A stretch of DNA of 64,000 nt, from the NCBI RefSeq assembly GCF_030384885.1, contig NZ_CP128613.1. The stretch is one strand, 5' to 3'. Shown here one piece after another: positions 17,760-44,601 of the stretch. This DNA comes from Escherichia coli (GTDB taxonomy: Bacteria; Pseudomonadota; Gammaproteobacteria; Enterobacterales; Enterobacteriaceae). Numbering within the stretch: position 1 is the first letter of the stretch; each line of letters starts with the position of its first letter. The notes under the pieces are model-generated. The model worked only from the letters and a program-made list of their open reading frames with translations. It was not told where the DNA came from and made no database searches. A program made the translations under genes and the position numbers.

Positions 17760-18259
17760 CGATTATTCATTGACCAACGTCTCATGTCCTGTTATTACTG
17801 TGAGATATTCAATCACGTTATCAAATAAAAAAATCGATATCATTGCGGTAAGCTTGTTATTGATTATAAATATGGGTAATAAGCGATATCCAGCATGAAT
17901 TTGATTGTACAGGGTATTTCCTATATAGCCATTGGTTAAATCTTGAAGATAAGATACCTCCGGCTGAAAAATCCATCCCGGCAATGAAGGATGTGATATT
18001 TTCGTAATTCTCTTGCAGAATAAACAACCCTGGATACGCTCTGAATACAAGGAAATTTTCCAATAAATTATTTATTCATCAATACTCCCCGGCGAGGATC
18101 ATCAAAATATCTCATTATCTTTTAAAACTGCCCAGCCCGTTATAACGGACGTTATCTGGCGCACGCTGAAGTGGGCATGATACTCACTTTCATTAAAATG
18201 CTCGACATGATTTGCTAATCGCTTAGCTAGATAATTGACGTTCAGTCTGTGCCAAATTT

Positions 18260-18619
18260 TTAGCGAAAAATAGCAAATTTAAGCCGGGAATTTATCAAAG
18301 CATCCTCATTTACTTCACCATGAACAATAAAGTCACGCATAAACTGCAGGTGTTTAATTAATAAAATCCATTCACTTTCAGTAAGATAGTTTTTCCCACG
18401 CAGATTATAATACAGAGATTTGATTAATGGGATCTTCTGCTTATGGCGCTTTGACCGCGCTGAGCACAATATTTGTTCTATCAGGCCAAGCGTCCCTTTC
18501 TGACGCAACCAGCACCGGAGTTCAGACTGCGCGCTAATGCCGCGAGCCACCGACAAATGTATTTGGGTAAGCAATGCGTATAAACCTAATAAAAACGCGT
18601 CGTGATAATACCGCTTCAT
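18260..18619 (-). CDS. Hypothetical basic protein, 119 aa, second gene of the inserted cassette
   Basis: ORF with GAGGTG RBS a few nt before the ATG, 12 bp after the upstream ORF stop; K+R-rich (net charge about +10); no family recognised. Confidence 0.55.
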   Translation of the reverse strand: MKRYYHDAFLLGLYALLTQIHLSVARGISAQSELRCWLRQKGTLGLIEQILCSARSKRHKQKIPLIKSLYYNLRGKNYLTESEWILLIKHLQFMRDFIVHGEVNEDALINSRLKFAIFR

Positions 18620-18631
18620 TACCCACCTCTG

Positions 18632-18970
18632 TTATCGTAATTTTTTAAACAAATAATCATATAAAATTTCGGCAATGAATTCTGCATGTTCACGTCGCAC
18701 AATGACATTCATAACGTAATATTGCGCAGCAATTTCATTGATAAAATGTTCAGGCAGTATGAATACGCGTGCATAAGCCGAGTATATTTCCAGTATTTCA
18801 TTTGAGATGTTTTCAAGATCAACGCAATAATTTGTCACATCATAAAAAAGATTAGCGTATTTTTTATTAATTATGCTAAGGCATATAAATGGGGCATTTA
18901 ATTTTTCACACAATTGCCAGTGCGTTCTTTCATTTTCTCCCTTCCATGTATACTTCATTTTGTCAGCCAT
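18632..18970 (-). CDS. Hypothetical protein, first gene of the inserted cassette (112 aa from ATG 18970; 108 aa from ATG 18958; 122 aa from GTG 19000)
   Basis: ORF in roughly 30-35% GC DNA; start codon ambiguous; no family recognised. Confidence 0.5.
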   Translation of the reverse strand: MADKMKYTWKGENERTHWQLCEKLNAPFICLSIINKKYANLFYDVTNYCVDLENISNEILEIYSAYARVFILPEHFINEIAAQYYVMNVIVRREHAEFIAEILYDYLFKKLR

Positions 18971-19105
18971 CCTTTGATTTACGCGTCTGAAGTTTACCAC
19001 TGTGTCTGGGGTAAACCATGCGTTCTATGGTAAAAATTATACGAGATGTGGCGCTGCGTAATATTCTGCTCCCTCAATATATTTCTGGTGAATATGTTCC
19101 AGGTT

Positions 19106-19138
19106 AATTGGGAAGATCTGCATGTGATCTTCCCAATT
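19106..19138. repeat. Perfect 13 bp inverted repeat with 7 nt loop
   Basis: aattgggaagatc-tgcatgt-gatcttcccaatt, between agp and the cassette. Confidence 0.6.
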
Positions 19139-19167
19139 TTATGACTACAAAATGTCAATAGCCGGGT

Positions 19168-20409
19168 TTATTTCACCGCTTCATTCAACACGCTATCAAA
19201 CTTATCCATTGGGCAGAAACCATCAGCGTCTATCGGGCAGCCGGTTAATTCCAGCGTCACGCGCTGAGCCGGAGCCTGCAACGTTAACGCATCAGCATTA
19301 CGCAACTGTTCCGCACTCTGGTACACATATTCAATTTTCATCAAATCGCGATTAGCTTTGCTGTTATGCCAACGCTGGAAAACGATTTTGCCGCCAATCG
19401 GCGTGCGTTCGTTCTGGTCATGCAACTGATACGGTTTGAAATCCAGTGCCGTTAACAGAGAGGCAATGTTTGAGTCGTGCCCCACCAGCACCGTGATTTT
19501 CGGTGCACTGGCGCGATCTGTCACCAGCGCTTTGTCGATATAACTGACCAGTGGTTTCGCAACATTGCGCGCCACTTCCGGTGAGGTAAACAGGCTATCC
19601 TGGTAACCGTTTTTCAGCTTCGACAACACTTTCCACTGTTGGTCAGATTTGATTTCTCCCCACGCCACCTGATCCATCGGGAAACCTTCGTAGTATTGCA
19701 AAGTAAACGCATCTACCAGCGAGTTGCCGACTTTCAGCGGCCCGGAAACGCCCGGTTCTTGTTGATACTTCGCGCTAAAGGTGTTTTTGCCATCTACAAG
19801 CGAACACTGTTGCTTCTCTTTACAGGCAGGAGAATCTTTATAGTTAACGATTTTTTCCAGTAGCTTGTAGCTGTCGGTAAGCTGGAGTTTGCCGAGCTCT
19901 TTCTCCATTGCCGCCACCGCCTGTTCACTGAATGCGGCGGAATCATCGGTGATCACCGGGTTAAAGGTTGGGTCCATGGTGCCCATTTTTTCCTGGTGGT
20001 GGACTGGAATGTCACACCCAGGGAATGCGCCAGTAATAAAGAACTGCGCGGTTGCGACGGTACGTTGCAGGCTGTTGGCATAGGCATAAACGGTGTCCGG
20101 CGGCGGGCATTCCCCCGAATTCACCATCCCCTGCTCTGCCAGCCACTCACGCATATAGTGGCCCATATACACTTCCAGCACACCGCCTTTGGTGGTGAGC
20201 TGCCCACCGGGGACGTCCCATTCTGGCCATTTATTCGGTGTGGATTGTTCCAGCACACTGCCATTGTTCGCCAGCGGCGCACGTAAGTTATGGCGGCTCA
20301 TTATGAGCACTTGCTGCAACTGATAGCCTTCCGGTACGGTTTGTGCCTGAGCATTTGAAGCGAGTAAAACTATCCCTGCCACAGCTGCGGCGATTAGCGT
20401 TTTGTTCAT
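19168..20409 (-). CDS. agp: Periplasmic glucose-1-phosphatase Agp
   Basis: 413 aa from [10 protein letters not shown]; histidine acid phosphatase motif RHNLRAP. Confidence 0.95.
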
Positions 20410-20703
20410 TCCTGGCACCTCTTTTGTTATCAATCACCAAAGAGTGTGACAGAAATATGACATTTTTCCGGGAACAGGTTCGCAAAATGGCTTGTTGAGT
20501 GCCTGTTTTTCTATATTTGTCATTAAAAAAAGGCAAGATTTGACGCAACCTATGCATGATTAGCCCCTGCCTCGTGTACGCCGTTGATGATTTCACCATG
20601 GGCTAGACAGAATATCACCGACGTTATCGATACAGGGGCAATATTTACTAGTAAAAAGAGAATGTGAGACTAATAAAAACTATTTTAGCACATGTCTTTA
20701 TCA

Positions 20704-21957
20704 TTAGATGGCATAACGATTTAAATAGTCCAGTTGCGCTTTCATTTCCTTATGGTTTAACTGGTATGACTGAGCAAAAAGTTCAGTAGGGAGGTAAACG
20801 TCATAATGATTGCCAGTATTTATTAAATAACCATACTCAAGATCTTCATCCGTTGAAAAGGATTCACTTCCCAAGGAGATTGATCCCACATTACAGGCAA
20901 CAATAAACAATGAACAAATGCTATCTGAAAGCACAGCAAGGAAATTCTTCACCGCTTTAACCTTTTCCGGAGAGTCGGTATTTAAAACAAGCGAACCCTT
21001 GTTATCATTAAATATAAACTCGGGTAAATGCAATATGCATCTTTCGTCATTCAAGCAACTACCAATGAATTCTTTTTTAAACTTAATAAAATTCGACGCT
21101 AAAGAATTACCCATATCCTGAATTTGGTTGTCAGAATGCAGATCAACGCCAAATAATGTCTTAATATCTTCCCTGAGATTAAAGAATGCTGCATCAACAA
21201 AAGACTCAATCACTTGTTTATCAACAATTTTAATAAATTCGTCGTATACTTCTTTTTGCGTCTTTTGACTGCCAAGCGCCCATGAATAATCAACGTGTTT
21301 TATAACCAGGATGGCTCTTAACAGACAATATCCATCGCCATCTACAGGCGCGTATTTTAATTTATGTGCTTGATTAACTTCACTCTGAATAAAAGATATA
21401 CCAGACAAATCAATACCAGTAGCTGAATCATATATTCCCGGCGCATTTATCCGTTTTGGCTGGACATTCGTAATTTCATCATCATCAAAGCAATACTCAG
21501 AAAAAACATCATTACACTCATTTAAGATATCAACATATGCTATAAATTTATACCAACAGCTACTTTTAAAGCCTGCAATAGCCTGTGAAAACATACCCGG
21601 CAAGGATATATTAACAAGCTCTCTTTCTTGAAAATATTGTATAGTATAGGTAATGCCTCCTGAATCCCCTGAATAAGTGTTTGTATCATGAGTACGTAAT
21701 GTTTTCATAAATGAAGATAAATCATTATCATTTTGCATTTCCTCTAATTCTGTTTCTAGTGATTCACACACCAGGCATGAAATATTTTCTTCTTTCCGCA
21801 TGATTTCATTGTACAACCGCATAAAACACTCTAGTTTTTGTTCAAAAAGCGTGATTGAACATTTTTGATTTTCTTCGCGCCTGGTTTTTATATCGGCCCA
21901 GGCTGTTTTCAAATAATTATTAGCACTGCAACTTACTCCATGTATATTACTACCCAT
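20704..21957 (-). CDS. yccE: Uncharacterized protein YccE
   Basis: 417 aa ORF in AT-rich DNA; recalled as YccE. Confidence 0.8.
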   Translation of the reverse strand: MGSNIHGVSCSANNYLKTAWADIKTRREENQKCSITLFEQKLECFMRLYNEIMRKEENISCLVCESLETELEEMQNDNDLSSFMKTLRTHDTNTYSGDSGGITYTIQYFQERELVNISLPGMFSQAIAGFKSSCWYKFIAYVDILNECNDVFSEYCFDDDEITNVQPKRINAPGIYDSATGIDLSGISFIQSEVNQAHKLKYAPVDGDGYCLLRAILVIKHVDYSWALGSQKTQKEVYDEFIKIVDKQVIESFVDAAFFNLREDIKTLFGVDLHSDNQIQDMGNSLASNFIKFKKEFIGSCLNDERCILHLPEFIFNDNKGSLVLNTDSPEKVKAVKNFLAVLSDSICSLFIVACNVGSISLGSESFSTDEDLEYGYLINTGNHYDVYLPTELFAQSYQLNHKEMKAQLDYLNRYAI

Positions 21958-22214
21958 ATATAGCGCCTATAAAATTTAATAAATAATGACGTCCTAGTTA
22001 AGCTTAAAGTGCCTGATTTAACTATCAAAAATCGCTCACCCTTTTACCTGTTTAAACTATGCTCAGCAATCCATCTTGACGCCACCTCCTCTCCACGATG
22101 ATTTCAATAACATATTCTGTGTTGGCATATGAAATTTTGAGGATTACCCTACACTTATAGGAGTTACCTTACAGGGGTTCCTTCAATTTGTGTTGATTTA
22201 CGCGAGATAACGCT

Positions 22215-32627: not shown

Positions 32628-33701
32628 ATGGCAGAGAAAAGAAGAACCCGCTGGCAGCGGCGGCCAGGCACGACGGGCGGCAAATTACCGTGGAATGACT
32701 GGCGCAATGCCACGACCTGGCGTAAAGCGACGCAATTATTACTGTTGGCAATTAATATTTATATTGCCATCACGTTCTGGTATTGGGTGCGCTATTACGA
32801 AACGGCAGGTAGTACGACATTTGTCGCCAGGCCAGGAGGCATCGAAGGCTGGCTACCGATTGCCGGTCTGATGAATCTGAAATATAGCCTTGCAACAGGC
32901 CAGTTACCGTCCGTCCACGCCGCCGCGATGCTGTTATTGGTCGCTTTTATCGTCATCAGTCTATTACTAAAAAAGGCCTTTTGTTCATGGTTATGCCCGG
33001 TTGGTACGCTTTCTGAATTAATCGGCGATCTCGGTAACAAACTGTTTGGTCGGCAATTTGTCCTTCCCCGCTGTCTGGATATTCCTCTGCGCGGCGTGAA
33101 GTATTTGCTGTTGAGTTTTTTTCTCTATATCGCGTTATTGATGCCCGCTCAGGCTATTCACTATTTTATGTTGTCGCCCTACAGCGTGGTGATGGACGTT
33201 AAAATGCTCGATTTCTTTCGTCATATGGGGACCGCGACATTAATCAGCGTGACCGTTTTGCTGATTGTCAGCCTGTTTATTCGCCATGCCTGGTGTCGTT
33301 ATCTTTGCCCATATGGCGCGCTGATGGGCTTGGTTTCGCTATTGTCGCCGTTTAAGATTCGTCGCAATGCCGAAAGTTGTATCGACTGTGGCAAATGCGC
33401 AAAAAATTGCCCATCGCGGATCCCGGTCGATAAATTAATTCAGGTACGAACCGTGGAATGTACCGGTTGTATGACTTGCGTAGAGTCATGTCCGGTAGCC
33501 TCAACATTGACCTTTTCACTGCAAAAACCTGCAGCAAATAAAAAAGCCTTTGCGTTGTCTGGGTGGTTAATGACGCTACTGGTTCTGGGGATTATGTTTG
33601 CGGTAATTGGTTACGCAATTTATGTAGGCGTATGGCAAAGCCCGGTGCCGGAGGAATTGTATCGACGCTTAATTCCACAAGCGCCAATGATTGGTCACTA
33701 A
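32628..33701 (+). CDS. yccM: 4Fe-4S membrane protein YccM
   Basis: 357 aa; cysteine clusters CxxCxxCxxxCP. Confidence 0.9.
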   Translation: MAEKRRTRWQRRPGTTGGKLPWNDWRNATTWRKATQLLLLAINIYIAITFWYWVRYYETAGSTTFVARPGGIEGWLPIAGLMNLKYSLATGQLPSVHAAAMLLLVAFIVISLLLKKAFCSWLCPVGTLSELIGDLGNKLFGRQFVLPRCLDIPLRGVKYLLLSFFLYIALLMPAQAIHYFMLSPYSVVMDVKMLDFFRHMGTATLISVTVLLIVSLFIRHAWCRYLCPYGALMGLVSLLSPFKIRRNAESCIDCGKCAKNCPSRIPVDKLIQVRTVECTGCMTCVESCPVASTLTFSLQKPAANKKAFALSGWLMTLLVLGIMFAVIGYAIYVGVWQSPVPEELYRRLIPQAPMIGH

Positions 33702-33749
33702 ATTAGCAACAAGCGGAACATCACCTCGCACGGGGTGATGTTCACAAAA

Positions 33750-33923
33750 TCACATTATTTTGATTTTGACATCATAGCTTTCAAGCCCAGTCATTTTTTC
33801 TCGTGCGGTGAAGCGAATTTCAGAGACTTCTTTCCCTGTATTCTTGTTCAACTCGGCGATTTTTTGCGCGATAAAGTCGGCGATTTCCGTTTCGGCTTGT
33901 TTTTTTAACTCTTCAATATTCAC
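33750..33923 (-). CDS. gnsA: GnsA (secG null mutant suppressor), 57 aa
   Basis: Manual translation gives (V/M)NIEELKKQAETEIADFIAQKIAELNKNTGKEVSEIRFTAREKMTGLESYDVKIKIM with GTG start and AAGAGG RBS. Confidence 0.8.
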   Translation of the reverse strand: MNIEELKKQAETEIADFIAQKIAELNKNTGKEVSEIRFTAREKMTGLESYDVKIKIM

Positions 33924-34014
33924 TGTTAACCTCTTCTGGTCTTAAAAGACAGCAACACGCCAGTAAGGTGTTGGTTCCCGGTACCCTGGTCAGGTAAGAA
34001 ATGTTATAAGCCAT
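33913..34014 (-). pseudogene. ymcE-like small ORF, apparently lacking the N-terminal part and an ATG start
   Basis: Frame reads ...SWSLFYICLIFFNAVCIVSDNLLIIESLGEMAYNISYLTRVPGTNTLLACCCLLRPEEVNSEY after an in-frame stop at 34117-34119; only ATG is at 34014 (34 aa). Confidence 0.25.
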
Positions 34015-34086
34015 CTCCCCTAAAGATTCAATAATCAACAGGTTATCGCTTACTATACATACAGCGTTGAAGAAAATAAGGCAGAT

Positions 34087-34112
34087 ATAAAAAAGGCTCC
34101 ACGAGGGAGCCT
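34087..34112 (-). terminator. Intrinsic terminator downstream of cspG
   Basis: Hairpin ggctcc-acgag-ggagcc followed by a T-run on the minus strand. Confidence 0.65.
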
Positions 34113-34315
34113 GATCTTATTTTGTGAAATCCAGCGGCGCATGGTCAGTGCGTATTTGCAGCGCGACGTTATCAAAGGTGATCATCGTCGATTTACAAAA
34201 AATACACTTTGCCCCTAAAGGATTTCGCTCCGTCACATCGAATGCCGATGTGCGGTACTGTGAACCATGACAACATGGACAGCGGAAATGGAGATGTTGA
34301 GTAATAACGGCAACC

Positions 34316-34528
34316 TTAGAGCGTAACAACGTTCGCTGCCGCGGGACCACGTTGCCCCTGCTCAATAGAAAATTCAACTTTCTGATTTTCGTTCAGCGTG
34401 CGGAATTCATTGCTCTGGATGGCGGTGAAATGGACGAAAACGTCTTTGCTGCCATCATCAGGAGTGATAAAGCCAAAACCTTTATCTGCGTTAAACCATT
34501 TTACTAAACCAGTCATTTTATTAGACAT
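34316..34528 (-). CDS. cspG: Cold shock protein CspG
   Basis: 70 aa; [12 protein letters not shown] cold-shock domain. Confidence 0.95.
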
Positions 34529-34813
34529 ATTTTACTTCCTTCATTTTGAGCCTTTCGGCAAACAGGGCTTTAATACAGAAACTACTTAGTGTTCAGGAGA
34601 GAGACTCAAAAGAAGGGGATAATGCCTGATAATGAGAACTGCTTTAGTAAACTACTTTGTATGCTGTCTGTCTTTCAAACCGACTCAGCTATTAACGCAT
34701 GATAATTGAGATTAAGCAATTTTTATTTTAGCCGTCCGGCGGTCTTAAATATCGCTGGCTTTATTTTATTAACCCCGTATAGTGCAGCGCAGTATTTTCA
34801 GTAAGGAATTTGT

Positions 34814-35026
34814 TTGCCCCGTAAAATGACAGGAATTGTCAAAACCTTTGATCGCAAAAGCGGCAAAGGATTCATTATCCCCTCCGACGGTCGTAAAGAA
34901 GTCCAGGTCCATATTTCCGCATTCACTCCCCGCGACGCAGAAGTACTTATACCAGGATTACGCGTGGAATTTTGCCGCGTAAATGGCCTACGCGGACCAA
35001 CAGCGGCAAATGTTTATCTCTCTTAA
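34814..35026 (+). CDS. cspH: Cold shock-like protein CspH
   Basis: 70 aa CSD protein divergent from cspG. Confidence 0.9.
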
Positions 35027-35467
35027 GATGACGCAGCTTGTTTAAAGCTGGCTGTTTTTATTAAAAAAGCTCAATAGTCAATATCGCACATTATAACAAA
35101 AGTTACTTTCACCCCAGAAAACAAATCCATTTGGCCGAATATCTCTGCACCTAATAGTTATAAATGCTACTTAACAGTCAATCATAGTACCGCTTGAAAC
35201 TATATCACCAACAATAGTTAATAGCTTTCTTAACAATTTTCTTATCTTTAATTTATATTTTTCTAAGATTTATCTTGTGCTCACAAGTCGTATTTCCAGA
35301 GGGGAATAGTTAACAATCTTATATTTCCCTCTGCGCGCCTTCCCCACCCGCAGTATATAGTGCTAGCGGTATGCGGAAAGGGAGATTTCACAAGGATGTT
35401 ATACTCAAAGTAGACAATCCTGATCTCAAGCGTACGTATTGTCCATGCGATGAATAAAGGAAAAGTT

Positions 35468-35773
35468 ATGAAACACAAGCTTTCTGCAATCCTTATGGCC
35501 TTCATGTTGACGACGCCAGCTGCGTTTGCTGCACCAGAAGCAGCAAACGGGACCGAGGCAACGACGGGTACTACTGGCACCACAACGACCACTACTGGTG
35601 CCACTACGACTGCTGCTACCACCGGTGGCGTAGCTGCTGGCGCTGTCGGCACGGCGACGGTTGTCGGTGTGGCAACGGCTGTTGGTGTGGCGACTTTGGC
35701 AGTAGTTGCAGCAAATGACAGTGGCGATGGCGGTTCTCATAACACCTCAACCACCACGTCCACTACGCGCTAA
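35468..35773 (+). CDS. gfcA: Threonine-rich inner membrane protein GfcA (group 4 capsule operon)
   Basis: 101 aa from MKHKLSAILM; long T/G/A low-complexity tract. Confidence 0.85.
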   Translation: MKHKLSAILMAFMLTTPAAFAAPEAANGTEATTGTTGTTTTTTGATTTAATTGGVAAGAVGTATVVGVATAVGVATLAVVAANDSGDGGSHNTSTTTSTTR

Positions 35774-35879
35774 TACTGCTTTAACGCGTCAAAATTAAAG
35801 TTAAATGATACCCGGTTGCGATATTCGTACCGGGCTTTAGAGATTTGCATTTTTTTAATTAACCTTTCAAGGATTAAAG

Positions 35880-36524
35880 GTGCGCCCTCTTATTTTATCG
35901 ATTTTCGCACTATTTCTTGCGGGATGTACGCACAGCCAGCAAAGTATGGTCGATACATTTCGCTCCAGCCTTTTCGATAATCAGGATATCACCGTAGCGG
36001 ATCAGCAGATACAGGCGTTGCCTTATTCCTCGATGTATTTACGCCTTAATGAAGGGCAACGAATCTTTGTGGTACTGGGATATATAGAACAAGAACAAAG
36101 CAAATGGTTATCCCAGGATAACGCCATGCTGGTTACCCACAATGGACGTCTTTTAAAAACCGTCAAACTTAATAATAATCTGCTGGAAGTGACAAATTCC
36201 GGGCAGGACCCTCTGCGTAACGCGCTGGCAATAAAAGACGGCAGCCGCTGGACGCGCGATATTCTCTGGAGTGAAGACAATCATTTTCGCTCTGCGACCC
36301 TGAGTTCCACTTTTTCCTTTGCTGGATTAGAGACGCTGAATATTGCGGGTCGCGATGTGCTGTGTAATGTCTGGCAGGAAGAGGTGACTTCCACGCTGCC
36401 AGAAAAACAGTGGCAAAACACATTCTGGGTCGATTCGGCTACTGGCCAGGTTCGTCAAAGTCGGCAAATGTTAGGCGCAGGGGTTATTCCCGTAGAAATG
36501 ACGTTTCTTAAACCCGCACCATGA
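35880..36524 (+). CDS. gfcB: Lipoprotein GfcB
   Basis: 214 aa; lipobox LAGC. Confidence 0.9.
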   Translation: MRPLILSIFALFLAGCTHSQQSMVDTFRSSLFDNQDITVADQQIQALPYSSMYLRLNEGQRIFVVLGYIEQEQSKWLSQDNAMLVTHNGRLLKTVKLNNNLLEVTNSGQDPLRNALAIKDGSRWTRDILWSEDNHFRSATLSSTFSFAGLETLNIAGRDVLCNVWQEEVTSTLPEKQWQNTFWVDSATGQVRQSRQMLGAGVIPVEMTFLKPAP

Positions 36525-37267
36525 ATAAATTACAGTCGTATTTCATTGCCAGCGTACTTTACGTAATGACACCCCATGCCTTTGCGCAAGGAACGGTGAC
36601 TATTTATCTGCCTGGCGAACAACAGCCCCTTTCCGTTGGCCCCGTGGAGAATGTTGTCCAGTTGGTGACACAACCGCAACTGCGCGATCGCCTCTGGTGG
36701 CCTGGAGTCTTGCTGACCGACTCCGCGGCGAAAGCTAAAGCGCTTAAAGACTACCAACATGTCATGGCACAGCTTGCTTCCTGGGAAGCAGAAGCTGACG
36801 ACGATGTGGCGGCAACGATTAAATCCGTGCGCCAGCAGTTACTCAATCTCAATATCACTGGTCGCTTACCGGTCAAACTGGACCCTGATTTTGTACGAAT
36901 GGATGAGAACAGCAATCCCCCGCTGGTCGGGGACTATACGCTCTATACCGTACAGCGCCCAGTGACTATTACTCTGCTGGGTGCGGTTTCTGGGGCTGGG
37001 CAATTGCCCTGGCAGGCAGGCCGTAGCGTTACCGATTATCTGCAAGATACCCCCCGTCTTGCAGGCGCGGACAAGAATAACGTTATGGTGATTACGCCTG
37101 AGGGTGAGACTGTCGTCGCCCCTGTTGCCCTGTGGAATAAAAGACATGTGGAACCACCGCCTGGCAGCCAGCTTTGGTTGGGCTTTTCTGCGCATGTACT
37201 GCCCGAAAAATATGCTGATTTAAATGACCAGATTGTGTCTGTTTTAACGCAACGTGTTCCTGACTGA
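36521..37267 (+). CDS. gfcC: GfcC (group 4 capsule)
   Basis: 248 aa with signal peptide; 4 bp overlap with gfcB. Confidence 0.9.
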
Positions 37268-39363
37268 TGAAGAAGAACTCTTATCTTTTAAGCTGCCTGG
37301 CCATTGCCGTCTCCAGTGCCTGTCATGCTGAAGTATTCACCTACCCGGATCCGCTGGGGTCGTCGCAATCAGACTTTGGCGGCACAGGATTGTTGCAGAT
37401 GCCAAATGCGCGCATCGCACCGGAAGGTGAATTCAGCGTCAACTACCGGGATAACGATCAATACCGTTTCTACTCCACGTCCGTGGCGCTGTTCCCATGG
37501 CTGGAAGGCACCATTCGTTATACGGATGTGCGCACACGCAAATATAGCCAGTGGGAAGATTTCAGCGGCGATCAGGCATACAAAGACAAATCTTTCGATT
37601 TTAAACTTCGCCTGTGGGAAGAAGGTTACTGGCTACCGCAAGTGGCGTTTGGTAAACGTGATATTGCTGGTACGGGTCTGTTTGACGGTGAATATCTGGT
37701 GGCCAGCAAGCAAGCGGGGCCATTTGATTTCACCCTCGGGATGGCGTGGGGCTACGCCGGTAATGCGGGCAATATTACCAACCCGTTTTGCCGGGTGAGC
37801 GATAAATATTGTCATCGTGCAGAGTCTCACGATGCGGGAGATATCAGCTTTAGCGATATCTTTCGTGGTCCGGCGTCCATCTTTGGCGGCATTGAGTATC
37901 AAACGCCGTGGAATCCTCTGCGTCTGAAACTCGAATACGACGGCAACAATTACCAGAATGATTTTGCGGGCAAATTGCCGCAGGCAAGTCATTTCAATTT
38001 CGGTGCTGTGTATCGTGCTGCCAGCTGGGCAGATCTTAACCTTAGCTACGAGCGCGGTAACACATTGATGTTTGGCTTCACATTACGGACCAATTTCAAC
38101 GATCTGCGCCCTGCCCTGCGCGATACGCCAAAACCGGCGTATCAACCTGCGCCGGAATCTGAAGGATTGCAGTACACCACAGTAGCGAACCAACTTACCG
38201 CGTTGAAGTATAACGCGGGCTTTGACGCGCCAGAAATTCAGCTGCGCGATAAGACGCTATATATGTCTGGTCAGCAATACAAATACCGTGACTCTCGTGA
38301 AGCGGTCGATCGTGCCAACCGGATTCTGGTGAATAACCTGCCGCAAGGCGTTGAGAAGATTAGCGTGACGCAAAAGCGCGAGCATATGACGATGGTGACT
38401 ACCGAAACCGACGTAGCCAGCCTGCGCAAACAGCTGGCCGGTACAGCGCCAGGTCAATCAGAGCCACTGCAACAACAACGTGTTGAAGCTGAAGATCTTT
38501 CTGCCTTTGGTCGGGGCTACCGTATTCGTGAAGATCGCTTTAGCTACTCTTTCAACCCAACACTTTCACAGTCGCTGGGCGGCCCGGAAGATTTCTATAT
38601 GTTCCAGTTGGGGCTGATGTCCAGCGCCCGCTACTGGTTTACCGATCACCTGCTGCTTGATGGCGGTATTTTCACCAATATTTACAACAACTACGACAAG
38701 TTTAAGTCTTCGCTGTTACCCGCGGACTCTACCCTCCCCCGCGTGCGCACGCATATCCGTGACTACGTTCGCAATGACGTTTATCTCAACAACTTGCAGG
38801 CGAACTATTTTGCCGACTTAGGCAATGGTTTCTATGGCCAGGTGTACGGCGGTTATCTGGAAACGATGTATGCCGGTGTTGGTTCCGAGCTGCTTTATCG
38901 CCCGCTCGATGCCAGCTGGGCGCTGGGGGTGGACGTTAACTACGTGAAGCAGCGTGACTGGGACAACATGATGCGCTTCACCGATTATTCCACGCCAACA
39001 GGTTTCGTGACGGCTTACTGGAACCCGCCGACGCTCAACGGCGTACTGATGAAACTCAGCGTTGGGCAATATCTGGCAAAAGATAAAGGGGCAACCATCG
39101 ACGTCGCCAAACGCTTTGACAGCGGCGTGGCGGTAGGGGTATGGGCGGCAATCAGTAACGTATCTAAAGATGACTACGGCGAAGGCGGCTTTAGTAAAGG
39201 TTTTTATATCTCGATTCCGTTCGACTTGATGACCATTGGACCTAACCGCAACCGCGCGGTGGTTTCGTGGACACCATTGACGCGTGATGGTGGACAAATG
39301 CTGTCACGTAAATACCAGCTCTATCCAATGACGGCAGAGCGAGAAGTACCGGTTGGACAATAA
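37267..39363 (+). CDS. gfcD: Outer membrane protein GfcD
   Basis: 698 aa with signal peptide. Confidence 0.9.
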
Positions 39364-39408
39364 CCTGACGTAATTCATAACATTACATTGACTGATAAAT
39401 ATAAACCA

Positions 39409-40548
39409 ATGAAAAAGAACATTTTTAAGTTTTCGGTACTGACATTGGCTGTTCTGTCTTTGACAGCATGTACCCTTGTTCCTGGTCAGAATTTATCGAC
39501 CAGTAACAAGGATGTCATTGAACTACCTGACAATCAGTATGACCTGGACAAAATGGTCAATATCTATCCCGTCACGCCAGGATTGATTGATCAGCTGCGC
39601 GCCAAACCGATTATGTCGCAGGCTAACCCGGAGCTGGAGCAGCAAATCGCGAACTATGAATATCGTATCGGCATTGGTGATGTGTTGATGGTGACGGTCT
39701 GGGATCACCCGGAACTAACCACACCCGCAGGGCAATATCGTAGCGCCAGTGATACTGGCAACTGGGTTAACGCTGATGGTGCAATTTTCTACCCTTATAT
39801 TGGTCGCCTGAAAGTGGCCGGGAAAACGCTTACCCAAGTACGCAACGAGATTACAGCGCGTCTGGACTCAGTCATTGAAAGCCCACAAGTCGATGTCAGC
39901 GTCGCGGCGTTCCGATCGCAAAAAGCGTACGTCACCGGCGAAGTCAGCAAATCGGGTCAGCAGCCGATTACCAATATTCCTCTGACCATCATGGATGCGA
40001 TTAACGCCGCGGGCGGTCTGACCGCAGATGCAGACTGGCGCAACGTGGTGCTCACCCAGAATGGCGTAAAGACCAAAGTGAACCTCTATGCGCTGATGCA
40101 GCGTGGCGACTTGCGCCAGAACAAACTGCTGCACCCGGGCGATATTTTATTTATTCCGCGCAACGATGATCTGAAAGTCTTCGTGATGGGTGAAGTGGGT
40201 AAACAGAGCACGTTGAAAATGGACCGCAGCGGTATGACCCTGGCGGAAGCACTGGGTAACGCTGAGGGTATGAATCAGGATGTCGCTGATGCGACGGGGA
40301 TTTTTGTTATTCGTGCAACGCAAAACAAGCAGAATGGCAAAATCGCCAATATTTATCAGCTGAATGCGAAGGACGCATCGGCAATGATACTCGGAACGGA
40401 ATTCCAGCTTGAACCTTACGACATTGTTTATGTCACTACCGCGCCGCTGGCTCGTTGGAACCGTGTGATTTCTCTGCTGGTACCGACGATTTCCGGGGTG
40501 CATGACCTGACAGAGACTTCACGGTGGATTCAAACATGGCCCAACTAA
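39409..40548 (+). CDS. gfcE: Wza-like outer membrane polysaccharide export lipoprotein GfcE
   Basis: 379 aa from [21 protein letters not shown]. Confidence 0.9.
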
Positions 40549-40982
40549 AATTTAACTCAATCCTGGTGGTTTGTACCGGCAACATTTGCCGTTCGCCCAT
40601 TGGCGAGCGCTTGCTGCGTAAACGTCTGCCAGGCGTAAAAGTCAAATCGGCAGGTGTTCATGGTCTGGTAAAGCACCCTGCAGATGCGACAGCGGCAGAT
40701 GTTGCCGCTAATCATGGCGTATCTCTTGAAGGACATGCCGGACGTAAGCTAACGGCTGAGATGGCACGAAATTACGATCTGATTCTGGCAATGGAGTCAG
40801 AGCATATTGCTCAGGTTACAGCAATCGCTCCCGAGGTCCGCGGGAAGACAATGCTGTTTGGGCAATGGCTGGAACAGAAAGAGATTCCGGATCCCTATCG
40901 TAAAAGTCAGGACGCATTTGAGCATGTCTACGGTATGTTGGAGCGCGCCAGTCAGGAATGGACGAAGCGCCTCAGCCGGTAA
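40536..40982 (+). CDS. etp: Low-molecular-weight phosphotyrosine phosphatase Etp
   Basis: 148 aa; CTGNICRS P-loop. Confidence 0.93.
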
Positions 40983-41001
40983 TTTGAGTTTATAAAATAC
41001 G

Positions 41002-43182
41002 ATGACAACTAAAAATATGAATACGCCACCAGGCAGCACTCAGGAAAATGAGATCGATCTGCTTCGTCTGGTCGGCGAGTTATGGGATCACCGTAAGTTT
41101 ATTATCAGCGTAACCGCGTTGTTCACGCTGATCGCTGTCGCTTACTCGCTGTTAAGCACGCCAATTTATCAGGCAGATACGCTGGTCCAGGTTGAGCAGA
41201 AACAGGGCAACGCCATTCTCAGCGGCCTGAGCGATATGATCCCTAACTCATCGCCCGAGTCAGCACCGGAGATCCAACTGCTGCAATCGCGCATGATTCT
41301 CGGTAAAACCATTGCTGAACTGAATCTGCGCGACATGGTTGAGCAGAAGTATTTTCCGATTGTGGGTCGCGGCTGGGCGAGATTAACCAAAGAGAAACCA
41401 GGTGAGCTGGCGATCAGCTGGATGCACATCCCACAACTGAATGGTCAGGATCAGCAACTTACACTCACAGTTGGGGAAAACGGCCACTATACGCTGGAAG
41501 GTGAAGGGTTCACCGTCAATGGTATGGTCGGCCAGCGTCTGGAAAAAGACGGCGTTGCGTTGACTATCGCGGACATTAAGGCCAAACCAGGAACGCAGTT
41601 TGTCCTGAGCCAGCGTACCGAACTGGAAGCGATTAACGCGTTGCAGGAAACCTTTACCGTTAGCGAACGCAGTAAAGAAAGCGGGATGCTGGAACTTACC
41701 ATGACCGGTGATGATCCCCAGTTGATTACTCGTATTCTGAACAGCATCGCTAACAACTATTTGCAACAGAATATCGCTCGCCAGGCGGCGCAGGATTCAC
41801 AAAGCCTTGAATTCTTACAGCGCCAGTTGCCAGAAGTGCGCAGCGAGCTGGACCAGGCGGAAGAAAAACTCAACGTTTATCGCCAGCAGCGCGATTCGGT
41901 TGACCTTAACCTGGAAGCCAAAGCCGTTCTTGAGCAGATTGTTAACGTTGATAATCAACTCAATGAGCTGACCTTCCGCGAGGCCGAGATCTCCCAGCTG
42001 TATAAGAAAGATCACCCAACTTATCGTGCGCTGCTGGAAAAACGCCAGACGCTGGAGCAAGAACGCAAACGCCTGAATAAGCGGGTATCGGCAATGCCTT
42101 CCACTCAACAGGAAGTATTGCGTTTAAGCCGTGACGTAGAAGCGGGCCGTGCGGTATATCTGCAATTACTTAACCGCCAGCAGGAGTTGAGTATTTCGAA
42201 ATCCAGTGCGATTGGTAACGTGCGGATTATCGACCCGGCAGTCACTCAGCCGCAGCCAGTGAAACCGAAAAAAGCGTTGAATGTGGTGCTTGGTTTTATT
42301 CTTGGCCTGTTTATTTCGGTGGGTGCCGTGCTGGCGCGTGCGATGTTGCGTCGTGGTGTAGAAGCACCGGAACAACTGGAAGAGCACGGCATCAGCGTTT
42401 ATGCCACTATCCCGATGTCCGAGTGGCTGGATAAGCGTACCCGTCTGCGTAAGAAAAATTTATTTTCTAATCAGCAGCGCCATCGTACTAAAAATATCCC
42501 CTTCCTGGCGGTGGATAACCCGGCGGATTCTGCTGTGGAAGCCGTACGTGCGCTACGAACCAGTCTGCATTTCGCTATGATGGAGACTGAGAATAATATT
42601 CTGATGATCACGGGTGCGACGCCAGACAGTGGTAAAACGTTCGTCAGTTCAACTCTGGCAGCGGTGATCGCCCAGTCCGATCAAAAAGTGTTATTTATTG
42701 ATGCCGACTTACGCCGTGGTTATTCGCATAACCTGTTTACCGTGAGTAATGAACATGGCTTGTCGGAATATCTGGCAGGGAAAGATGAGCTCAACAAAGT
42801 GATCCAGCATTTTGGCAAAGGAGGCTTTGATGTGATTACTTGCGGTCAGGTGCCACCTAACCCGTCTGAACTGCTGATGCGCGATCGGATGCGTCAATTA
42901 CTGGAATGGGCGAACGACCATTACGATCTGGTGATTGTCGATACGCCGCCGATGCTGGCAGTGAGCGATGCTGCGGTCGTGGGACGCTCTGTCGGCACCA
43001 GCCTGCTGGTTGCGCGTTTTGGCTTGAACACCGCCAAAGAGGTGAGCTTGTCAATGCAGCGTCTGGAACAGGCTGGCGTTAATATTAAAGGCGCAATCCT
43101 CAATGGTGTGATTAAACGCGCCAGCACCGCTTACAGTTATGGCTATAACTATTATGGTTATAGTTACTCCGAGAAAGAGTAA
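41002..43182 (+). CDS. etk: BY-kinase (tyrosine autokinase) Etk
   Basis: 726 aa; Walker A GATPDSGKT; C-terminal tyrosine cluster YSYGYNYYGYSY. Confidence 0.95.
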   Translation: MTTKNMNTPPGSTQENEIDLLRLVGELWDHRKFIISVTALFTLIAVAYSLLSTPIYQADTLVQVEQKQGNAILSGLSDMIPNSSPESAPEIQLLQSRMILGKTIAELNLRDMVEQKYFPIVGRGWARLTKEKPGELAISWMHIPQLNGQDQQLTLTVGENGHYTLEGEGFTVNGMVGQRLEKDGVALTIADIKAKPGTQFVLSQRTELEAINALQETFTVSERSKESGMLELTMTGDDPQLITRILNSIANNYLQQNIARQAAQDSQSLEFLQRQLPEVRSELDQAEEKLNVYRQQRDSVDLNLEAKAVLEQIVNVDNQLNELTFREAEISQLYKKDHPTYRALLEKRQTLEQERKRLNKRVSAMPSTQQEVLRLSRDVEAGRAVYLQLLNRQQELSISKSSAIGNVRIIDPAVTQPQPVKPKKALNVVLGFILGLFISVGAVLARAMLRRGVEAPEQLEEHGISVYATIPMSEWLDKRTRLRKKNLFSNQQRHRTKNIPFLAVDNPADSAVEAVRALRTSLHFAMMETENNILMITGATPDSGKTFVSSTLAAVIAQSDQKVLFIDADLRRGYSHNLFTVSNEHGLSEYLAGKDELNKVIQHFGKGGFDVITCGQVPPNPSELLMRDRMRQLLEWANDHYDLVIVDTPPMLAVSDAAVVGRSVGTSLLVARFGLNTAKEVSLSMQRLEQAGVNIKGAILNGVIKRASTAYSYGYNYYGYSYSEKE

Positions 43183-43195
43183 AACTGAAGGTAAT

Positions 43196-43235
43196 GTGGC
43201 CGGATGCGGCGTGAACGCCTTTTCCGGCCTACGCA
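43196..43235. repeat. REP element
   Basis: gccggatgcggcgtgaacgccttttccggcctacg. Confidence 0.7.
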
Positions 43236-43302
43236 TCAGACAGTTCTTCGTTTGTCATCAGCTTCAGAGCATTCAGGTAACTGAATGCTCTTTTTTTATG
43301 CA

Positions 43303-44601
43303 TTACAAACTGCACGCCGGTATGCGTGCTTCATTCACGATTTGCGTAAAACCGGTCAACGAACACATGCCCTGCGCGTTTCGCTCTTCACATCCTGCCA
43401 GGGTCAGTTTCACCTCTCCGGGCGGCGTATTTAATGATAGCGGCGTTTTATCACGCATCTGCTGTAAAGTCTGGAAGACCAGCGAAACCTGAATCCAATG
43501 GCTGTTATCGCTTAGCCTACGCCAGCGTTCAAACACCAGTTCACCACCTGGCGGTGTGTTATCCGGCTGACCTGGAAGCGTCCAGTTGAGCTCCAGTGCG
43601 CCGCCGAGATTTGCCAGATTAGTATCGTGTCCGGCGATAAACAGCACTGAAGTGGGTAATGTCACACCATACACCTGTTTTTGCGGTGGATGGGGCATCA
43701 ACGCTGTCATGATCAAATCCAACAACGGGGTGGCACGACTGCGGGCAACCTCTGGCGTGCGTTGTAGCAAATAAAACTGCGCGTTATGCAGGCTTAGCAA
43801 GGTGTTCCACTGGTGTGAATCGGTGATCCTTCCCCACCCCGGCTCCGGCATTCCCTGTGCTTGTTGCAGGAGAAATATCTCCGTCAGCATTGACGCCAGG
43901 CTTACCGCACCGGTTAATGAGACATTGTCGGCGCTCACCTTGAGTTCCGATGGTAATACCTGCGTTAATGAACAGCTTTCGTCCTGTTTCTCACGGTTAA
44001 GGCACAAGTTTGATTGTGGGAAATTAAGCACCTGTTCCAGTTCGCGAAACGCCGTTTGCCGATGCCCGGTAAAGTCAGCAATTGACCCTCCTGCCCTGCT
44101 GAGGATCGCGTCAGTCACGTTCGCGTTATCCAGTTGGCAAATGCCAGTTTTTAGAGGATTAAATAACGGATCGGGACTGGACGTATCTGCCTGGGTATGT
44201 ACGGTTATTGCGCAGTCAGGTGCCAGCCCGGCGGCGAAGGCTTCGCCTGTTTTACGGGTACGCTCGTCGACATCAGCAATAATCGCGACCTGACCAGGCT
44301 GCGGGCAGCCCTTTTTCGCCAGCAATCCGTCAGCCACCAGACGCTGGCGTTGGTAATGTCCGAGATAAGCGATTAGCTCACCACCGCGCGGTGTCAGCCA
44401 CCCCAGTTTTACCGGCCATGTTGGCCATGCGTCTGGGGTGACATCCTGCATCAGTTGCGTGGCCTTGGTTGGGGCACGCACACCATGACGACTGACAATC
44501 ACCACACTTTCCAGCTTCAGCTCCGGCTCACTCTGAGCGAATGCAGATTGCGGGGTGAACGGAATCAGAAGAGATAAGAATGGGATCAAGATCGCTTTCA
44601 T
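43303..44601 (-). CDS. appA: Periplasmic phytase / acid phosphatase AppA
   Basis: 432 aa from MKAILIPFLS; RHGVRAP histidine acid phosphatase motif. Confidence 0.95.
   Translation of the reverse strand: MKAILIPFLSLLIPFTPQSAFAQSEPELKLESVVIVSRHGVRAPTKATQLMQDVTPDAWPTWPVKLGWLTPRGGELIAYLGHYQRQRLVADGLLAKKGCPQPGQVAIIADVDERTRKTGEAFAAGLAPDCAITVHTQADTSSPDPLFNPLKTGICQLDNANVTDAILSRAGGSIADFTGHRQTAFRELEQVLNFPQSNLCLNREKQDESCSLTQVLPSELKVSADNVSLTGAVSLASMLTEIFLLQQAQGMPEPGWGRITDSHQWNTLLSLHNAQFYLLQRTPEVARSRATPLLDLIMTALMPHPPQKQVYGVTLPTSVLFIAGHDTNLANLGGALELNWTLPGQPDNTPPGGELVFERWRRLSDNSHWIQVSLVFQTLQQMRDKTPLSLNTPPGEVKLTLAGCEERNAQGMCSLTGFTQIVNEARIPACSL

Follow-up and report, generated by a model that had tools for sequence, protein, structure and literature searches.

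An uninterrupted cspH–gfcA spacer upstream of a complete group 4 capsule operon in a cryptic clade I Escherichia strain

We are highly confident that the 441 bp separating cspH from gfcA in the window, by which we mean the whole 64,000-nucleotide stretch of DNA that was analysed, constitute the native control region of the group 4 capsule export operon, never having been interrupted. The cspH gene ends at 35026 and the ATG of gfcA begins at 35468, so the spacer occupies exactly 35027–35467. The first-pass annotation had described it as 441 bp of AT-rich DNA devoid of IS-like reading frames and terminal inverted repeats, and this description holds in all its parts: the coordinates are exact, the G+C content is 36.1% against 51.4% over the whole window (and about 30% in the distal half of the spacer), the list of open reading frames contains none of at least 40 aa lying wholly within the spacer, and the repeats present are short, the best of them being a 12-nt hairpin, with none bracketing a reading frame. 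A search for IS1 termini returned zero matches at up to three mismatches in the entire 64-kb window. The spacer occurs at a median of one place in E. coli genomes, and at most at two; it is single-copy and therefore not a mobile repeat. Since absence of an IS is the default state, a chance statistic is inapplicable here. An Rfam search of 33500–36500 gave no match within the spacer, its two sub-threshold hits and a match to the cspA thermoregulator lying elsewhere in that interval. The IS-free character of the region is real, ordinary and already known.

Both the cspH–gfcA stretch and the 9.4-kb gfc locus match NZ_CP027579.1, the chromosome of strain 2013C-4282, at 100%. A study of Escherichia cryptic clade I includes this strain in its list of those with complete sequences. 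The isolate was recovered in 2013 from human stool and harbours an Stx1a phage (stx1a); it is typed as OG9 (O17/O44/O73/O77/O106):H45 in supplementary Table S1 of PMC10100065. The origin of the source in cryptic clade I explains why the window is only 94–98% identical to K-12 and why only 9 genomes match the cspH–gfcA stretch at 99% or more. The OG9 typing implies an O-antigen cluster, outside the window, which could supply material for the capsule.

The operon downstream of the spacer is complete, as the first-pass annotation had also maintained: its seven co-oriented genes are open and free of internal stops, all have the lengths of their MG1655 counterparts (Table 1), and the encoded proteins display 98–100% amino acid identity to them. 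The identity of CspH to its K-12 counterpart is 98.6%. Matches far above the curated Pfam cut-offs were obtained for six of the seven operon proteins (YjbF, GfcC N and C, YjbH, Wza-like OPX, LMW-PTP and Wzc-like BY-kinase), while the low-complexity, threonine-rich GfcA matched no Pfam family. In the RefSeq annotation of NZ_CP027579.1 the order runs cspH, gfcA, gfcB, gfcC, gfcD, gfcE, etp, etk and then appA; the order of the seven genes is the one described for E. coli, and the position between cspH and appA is that of the group 4 capsule operon. In every feature of a gfc operon that can be read from a sequence, the locus in the window corresponds to it.

Table 1. Features of the gfc locus and of its upstream spacer, in coordinates of the window
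Feature	Position	Strand	Basis or remark
cspH, 70 aa, TTG start	34814–35026	+	ORF list; RefSeq annotation of NZ_CP027579.1
Whole cspH–gfcA spacer	35027–35467	+	Uninterrupted gfc regulatory region, 36.1% G+C
Terminator-like hairpin and T-run	35034–35060	+	Consensus scan: stem 35034–35050 CAGCTTGTTTAAAGCTG, then GCTGTTTTTA
Hypervariable AT-rich half	35054–35213	.	50 of 160 columns substituted among 11 alleles
Fairly conserved segment	35214–35333		11-allele alignment
Sigma-70-like candidate TTAACA-18-TATATT	35230–35259	+	Best match in the window allele
Best conserved sigma-70-like candidate TTGTAT-17-TATGCT	35253–35281	+	PWM scan; TTATAT-17-TGTGCT in the window
Conserved hairpin	35297–35333	+	12-bp arms CAGAGGGGAATA / TATTTCCCTCTG, 13-nt loop
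Variable segment	35334–35373		11-allele alignment
Near-invariant gfcA-proximal block	35374–35467	+	2 of 94 columns substituted among 11 alleles
Extended −10-like motif TGTTATACT	35397–35405	+	Within the invariant block, without a −35; read directly
Empty IS1 target site CGTATTGTC	35435–35443	.	Single copy; duplicated around IS1D in K-12
Shine-Dalgarno AAGGA	35457–35461	+	Motif read off directly
gfcA, 101 aa, threonine-rich inner membrane protein	35468–35773	+	Annotation, alignment
gfcB, 214 aa, lipoprotein, Pfam YjbF	35880–36524	+	Annotation, alignment, Pfam
gfcC, 248 aa, Pfam Caps_syn_GfcC_N and _C	36521–37267	+	Annotation, alignment, Pfam
gfcD, 698 aa, Pfam YjbH	37267–39363	+	Annotation, alignment, Pfam
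gfcE, 379 aa, Wza-like exporter (Poly_export, SLBB, Wza_C)	39409–40548	+	Annotation, alignment, Pfam
etp, 148 aa, low-molecular-weight phosphotyrosine phosphatase	40536–40982	+	Annotation, alignment, Pfam
etk, 726 aa, tyrosine autokinase (Wzz, GNVR, AAA_31)	41002–43182	+	Annotation, alignment, Pfam

The corresponding region of the K-12 reference is neither identical nor uninterrupted. In MG1655, IS1D (768 bp, 1049778–1050545, with insA4 and insB4) lies between gfcA, whose start is at 1049744, and cspH, and it is bordered by the 9-bp target duplication GACAATACG, which in the orientation of the window reads CGTATTGTC. The IS1 which the first-pass annotation had mentioned for the promoter region of K-12 laboratory strains is thus confirmed by the MG1655 annotation, and it is also published: IS1D has been placed in the gfcA promoter region (PMC12428005), and a further article (PMC2516531) credits the IS1 upstream of the K-12 gfc operon to Peleg 2005. 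The arithmetic of the K-12 spacer is exact, its 1218 bp being the sum of 441, 768 and 9 bp, and removal of IS1D together with one copy of the duplication yields a gap-free 441-bp alignment to the window, with identities of 90.2% in the spacer, 97.2% in cspH and 95.4% in gfcA, and with complete identity from 35375 to 35532. The MG1655 gfc locus (b0981–b0988; NC_000913.3 1042030–1050545) accordingly has the same genes with the same lengths and a spacer which is colinear after excision; it differs from the window in that the 768-bp element and its 9-bp duplication split the leader 24 bp before the ATG.

In the window the target site is empty. The CGTATTGTC nonamer stands there in a single copy, shortly before the Shine-Dalgarno sequence and 24 bp ahead of the gfcA ATG, and the window holds no 768-bp element with IS1 ends and insA/insB; the same nonamer is duplicated in K-12 and in the wild isolates ETEC1703 and PSJ-23. 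Precise excision of IS1 occurs at low frequency, and an empty site might in principle be secondary, left behind by a former IS1 which has been precisely excised. The single-copy nonamer, however, is embedded in a block that is nearly invariant among 11 alleles and is found in about 3,200 genomes including those of clade I and of the other E. coli lineages sampled, and the IS1-bearing genomes examined share a near-identical flank of the K-12 type (2 and 4 mismatches in about 4.3 kb). We consider a secondary origin of the empty site extremely improbable, and the never-interrupted state remains our reading of it.

How common this state is can be judged from a survey of 5,426 complete E. coli genomes. 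An 81-bp probe spanning the target site was found in 3,610 of them and was uninterrupted in 3,205; in the remaining genomes, about 405 of the 3,610, it is interrupted, and in most of those sampled the break falls at the base matching 35435. Clade I, EPEC O127:H6, O157:H7 and strain B are among those that carry the uninterrupted spacer, and its occurrence in these indicates that the IS-free state is ancestral. The IS-free spacer is therefore the majority and the ancestral condition, and no peculiarity of this window. A 140-bp probe placed over the K-12 gfcA/IS1D junction is matched at full length in 413 genomes, of which the best 60 comprise K-12 laboratory derivatives and the NEB ‘B’ strains C3029 and C2566. 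The junction in C3029 and C2566, set beside the uninterrupted spacer of BL21(DE3), was probably brought in with K-12 DNA alongside a neighbouring marker; in K-12, sulA is about 30 kb distant.

Outside the laboratory, the isolates ETEC1703 (pig, Belgium) and PSJ-23 (human, Ecuador) carry IS1 at the K-12 site, where its orientation and its duplication are those of K-12 (positions 1733–2500 in both extracted loci, L005 and L006). Their flanks differ from K-12 by 2 and 4 mismatches, respectively, in about 4.3 kb, which favours a single shared insertion over the alternative of an insertional hot spot. The inserted elements of the two isolates depart from IS1D at 4 and 10 bases, a divergence consistent with subsequent conversion among IS1 copies. 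The presence of the K-12 insertion in at least two K-12-like wild isolates means that it was not a purely laboratory event.

Loss of the locus is likewise frequent. With a 9.4-kb probe for the locus, 80% or more of it was recovered from 3,695 of 5,422 genomes and less than that from about 1,727, and in most of the latter that were sampled cspH adjoins appA. In DSM 101139, the sole example aligned, there is a clean 8.29-kb deletion equivalent to 35025–43311 of the window, which runs from the cspH stop codon to the 3′ end of appA, so that the annotated cspH and appA overlap; the flanking cspG, cspH and appA are as in the window, whereas the whole spacer and all seven genes are gone. The gfc locus thus has three common states: intact, split by IS1, and largely or wholly deleted. 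Rarer lesions were also noted. PE15 has an independent IS1 within the 3′ end of gfcA (L007, 1921–2688) with the duplication CGATGGCGG, an IS3-family element lies at some point of the gfc locus in strain H115, and some genomes are broken at other positions of the spacer. The locus has been struck repeatedly by IS elements.

What are the consequences of an uninterrupted spacer for expression? In K-12, IS1 lies downstream of all three promoter candidates described below and upstream of the ribosome-binding site, 24 bp before the gfcA start, so that promoter and leader end up on one side of the element and the ribosome-binding site with the genes on the other. IS1 is strongly polar in either orientation, and its polarity would block read-through from the native promoter, so that the ribosome-binding site and all seven genes of K-12 would be cut off from the upstream control region. 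This separation is the published reason why K-12 does not make the capsule machinery, and the K-12 gfc operon is thought not to be expressed during growth in LB. In the window the operon is contiguous from the promoter region through leader and ribosome-binding site to the last of the seven intact genes, and the potential for normal regulated expression would be kept. The suggestion of the first-pass annotation that the operon may be expressible is plausible for strain 2013C-4282, where expression and the building of a capsule are predicted from the sequence.

The effect of IS1 on K-12 might also be an altered regulation rather than an on/off switch, if the element had replaced native control with a weak outward promoter of its left end. 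The insA-proximal end of IS1D faces gfcA, and genomic SELEX places an RpoD holoenzyme site between gfcA and insA4. A predicted promoter directed towards gfcA reads TGGAGA-18-TACACT, in which TACACT is the complement of AGTGTA, nucleotides 26–31 of IS1D at the end abutting gfcA, and the gfcA–insA4 pair is listed as a divergent excludon with overlapping transcripts. K-12 is moreover not fully silent, as etk is expressed and etk-dependent phenotypes exist in it. The literature, however, regards the operon as not expressed in K-12 in LB, and etk expression there could arise from an internal promoter. We deem such a replacement of control unlikely, and prefer the view that IS1 severs the operon from its promoter.

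A further concern is that an operon free of insertions may nevertheless be poorly expressed or silent in the present strain, owing to promoter changes at 35277 and 35255, to repression acting on the AT-rich region, or to both. Enterohaemorrhagic E. coli (EHEC) provides the precedent: its spacer is uninterrupted, yet under the same conditions its gfcA mRNA level is about 30-fold below that of EPEC and no capsule can be seen, so that absence of an IS is no guarantee of expression. With a G+C content of only about 30%, the distal half of the spacer would suit repression of an AT-rich region, and the promoter changes have to be judged against the candidate promoters themselves.

Consensus and PWM scans of 11 aligned spacer alleles yielded promoter candidates which are in silico predictions, weak and mutually inconsistent (Table 1). 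The best conserved of them, TTGTAT-17-TATGCT, is kept in all other full-length alleles examined. In the window it is altered at two positions. The A to G change at 35277, the second position of the candidate −10, turns TATGCT into TGTGCT and is private to strain 2013C-4282: the other examined alleles have A, and so do the nearest relatives (L032 and L033, 99.4–99.5% identity). The G to A change at 35255, characteristic of the sublineage, turns TTGTAT into TTATAT and at the same time creates a TATATT −10 paired with TTAACA, where all 10 other alleles of the 11-allele alignment read TGTATT, while the two closest relatives share TATATT. The private change could weaken the candidate promoter of this strain, and the two changes together could shift the promoter by about 23 bp.

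In favour of a silent allele stands the loss of an otherwise conserved A at 35277. The substitution may, on the other hand, lie outside the actual promoter; the change at 35255 creates a better-scoring candidate, TTAACA-18-TATATT; neither substitution falls within the invariant 94-bp block with its extended −10-like motif; and all seven genes are under purifying selection, as reflected in their 98–100% amino acid identity. Poor expression or silence is, on balance, a tangible but minority possibility, and an expressible operon remains the preferred reading. Published complementation experiments are informative about the extent of the promoter region. To judge by the published primer CAGCCAGTTATAGTACCACTTG, 292 bp upstream of gfcA were enough to complement a g4c deletion in S. 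sonnei, and in EPEC the whole spacer was used as the ‘gfcA promoter’ fragment (primer gfcA5).

Deletions in the spacer were seen in two further strains. E. coli B has lost 23 bp equivalent to 35266–35288, including the candidate −10 TATGCT, and strain 06-00048 has lost 13 bp equivalent to 35357–35369, in the variable segment before the invariant block. The spacer is 441 bp long in 9 of the 11 alleles examined, and that of the window can be aligned without gaps both with the K-12 spacer after IS1 excision and with 8 further full-length alleles.

Conservation along the spacer is strikingly uneven, as the same 11-allele alignment demonstrates. Directly behind cspH stands a terminator-like hairpin with a T-run, which probably ends the cspH transcript, to judge by its consensus features. 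It gives way to the hypervariable half, to a fairly conserved segment which closes with a second hairpin, to a short variable segment opening with a C-rich tract (35334–35352) directly after that hairpin, and finally to the near-invariant block, which runs on into the GfcA signal peptide. This 94-bp block, into which the K-12 IS1 has inserted, hardly varies between cryptic clade I, EPEC, EHEC and K-12. The hairpin at 35297–35333 has a predicted RNA folding energy of −16.5 kcal/mol (z = −3.8); of its base pairs 8 are invariant and 3 are changed on one side in a G.U-compatible manner, with 0 compensatory changes, and covariation hence lends it no support.

It is tempting to view the hairpin, the C-rich tract and the 94-bp block as a cis-regulatory leader, with the two point changes having re-wired the promoter ahead of it, although we rate this combined proposal as rather improbable. 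If true, it would point, for example, to control of mRNA stability or of Rho-dependent termination ahead of the Rho site of gfcA, in which a strong Rho-dependent terminator zone has been reported. JUMPstart/ops leaders, which depend on RfaH, are likewise long leaders upstream of multi-gene polysaccharide export operons. As an identity for the present leader they were rejected: the ops core GGCGGTAG is absent from 35027–35467 at up to one mismatch, and Rfam gave no JUMPstart match at E ≤ 1. A scan of genome contigs for the leader with the 18-mer GGATGTTATACTCAAAGT yielded nothing beyond 15 chance hits, which fell in MAGs of Prevotella and Clostridia. A recombination boundary at the spacer was also considered and discarded, the identity to K-12 in 2-kb bins being mosaic (86.6–98.9%) with no clean break.

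The best reference for a functioning operon of this kind is EPEC O127:H6 E2348/69, for which capsule production has been demonstrated, whereas 2013C-4282 is known here from its sequence. The E2348/69 operon (ymcDCBA-yccZ-etp-etk) occupies the same place after cspH and is preceded by a 441-bp spacer that is likewise uninterrupted, shares the hairpin haplotype and has a single differing base in its proximal block. The overall spacer identity is 90.9%; the distal half is strongly diverged, and within the candidate promoter region positions 35255 and 35277 of the window are changed in a lineage-specific way. The gfc group 4 capsule operon of EPEC and its upstream region are reportedly the subject of Peleg et al. 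2005, J Bacteriol 187:5259. The K-12 gfc IS1 and its absence from pathogenic strains are already known, having been in the literature since 2005.

The value of the present observation is therefore one of annotation, in that a cryptic clade I strain carrying stx1a keeps a complete and uninterrupted capsule-export operon. The group 4 capsule has been linked to resistance to the antimicrobial peptide alpha-defensin 5 (HD-5) and to phage adsorption, and its temporal regulation permits type III secretion contact with host cells.

Several other features of the window came to light alongside the gfc locus. Between yccJ and agp, about 1.4 kb at 17767–19168 are missing from K-12; this segment has two minus-strand reading frames, 18260–18619 (119 aa) and 18632–19000 (122 aa), neither with a Pfam match, and only 5 of the 5,426 complete E. 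coli genomes contain 80% or more of the segment. The 2-kb bin at 20001–22000, in the region of yccE, is the most divergent from K-12 at 86.6%, the identity elsewhere being 93–99%. The ymcE gene, at about 33913–34142 (11100–11329 of L002), is annotated by RefSeq as a frameshifted pseudogene in 2013C-4282. The cspA thermoregulator match lies at 34262–34684 on the minus strand (157.7 bits, E = 1.7e-42) and covers the 5′ UTR and the start of cspG, which is divergent from cspH.
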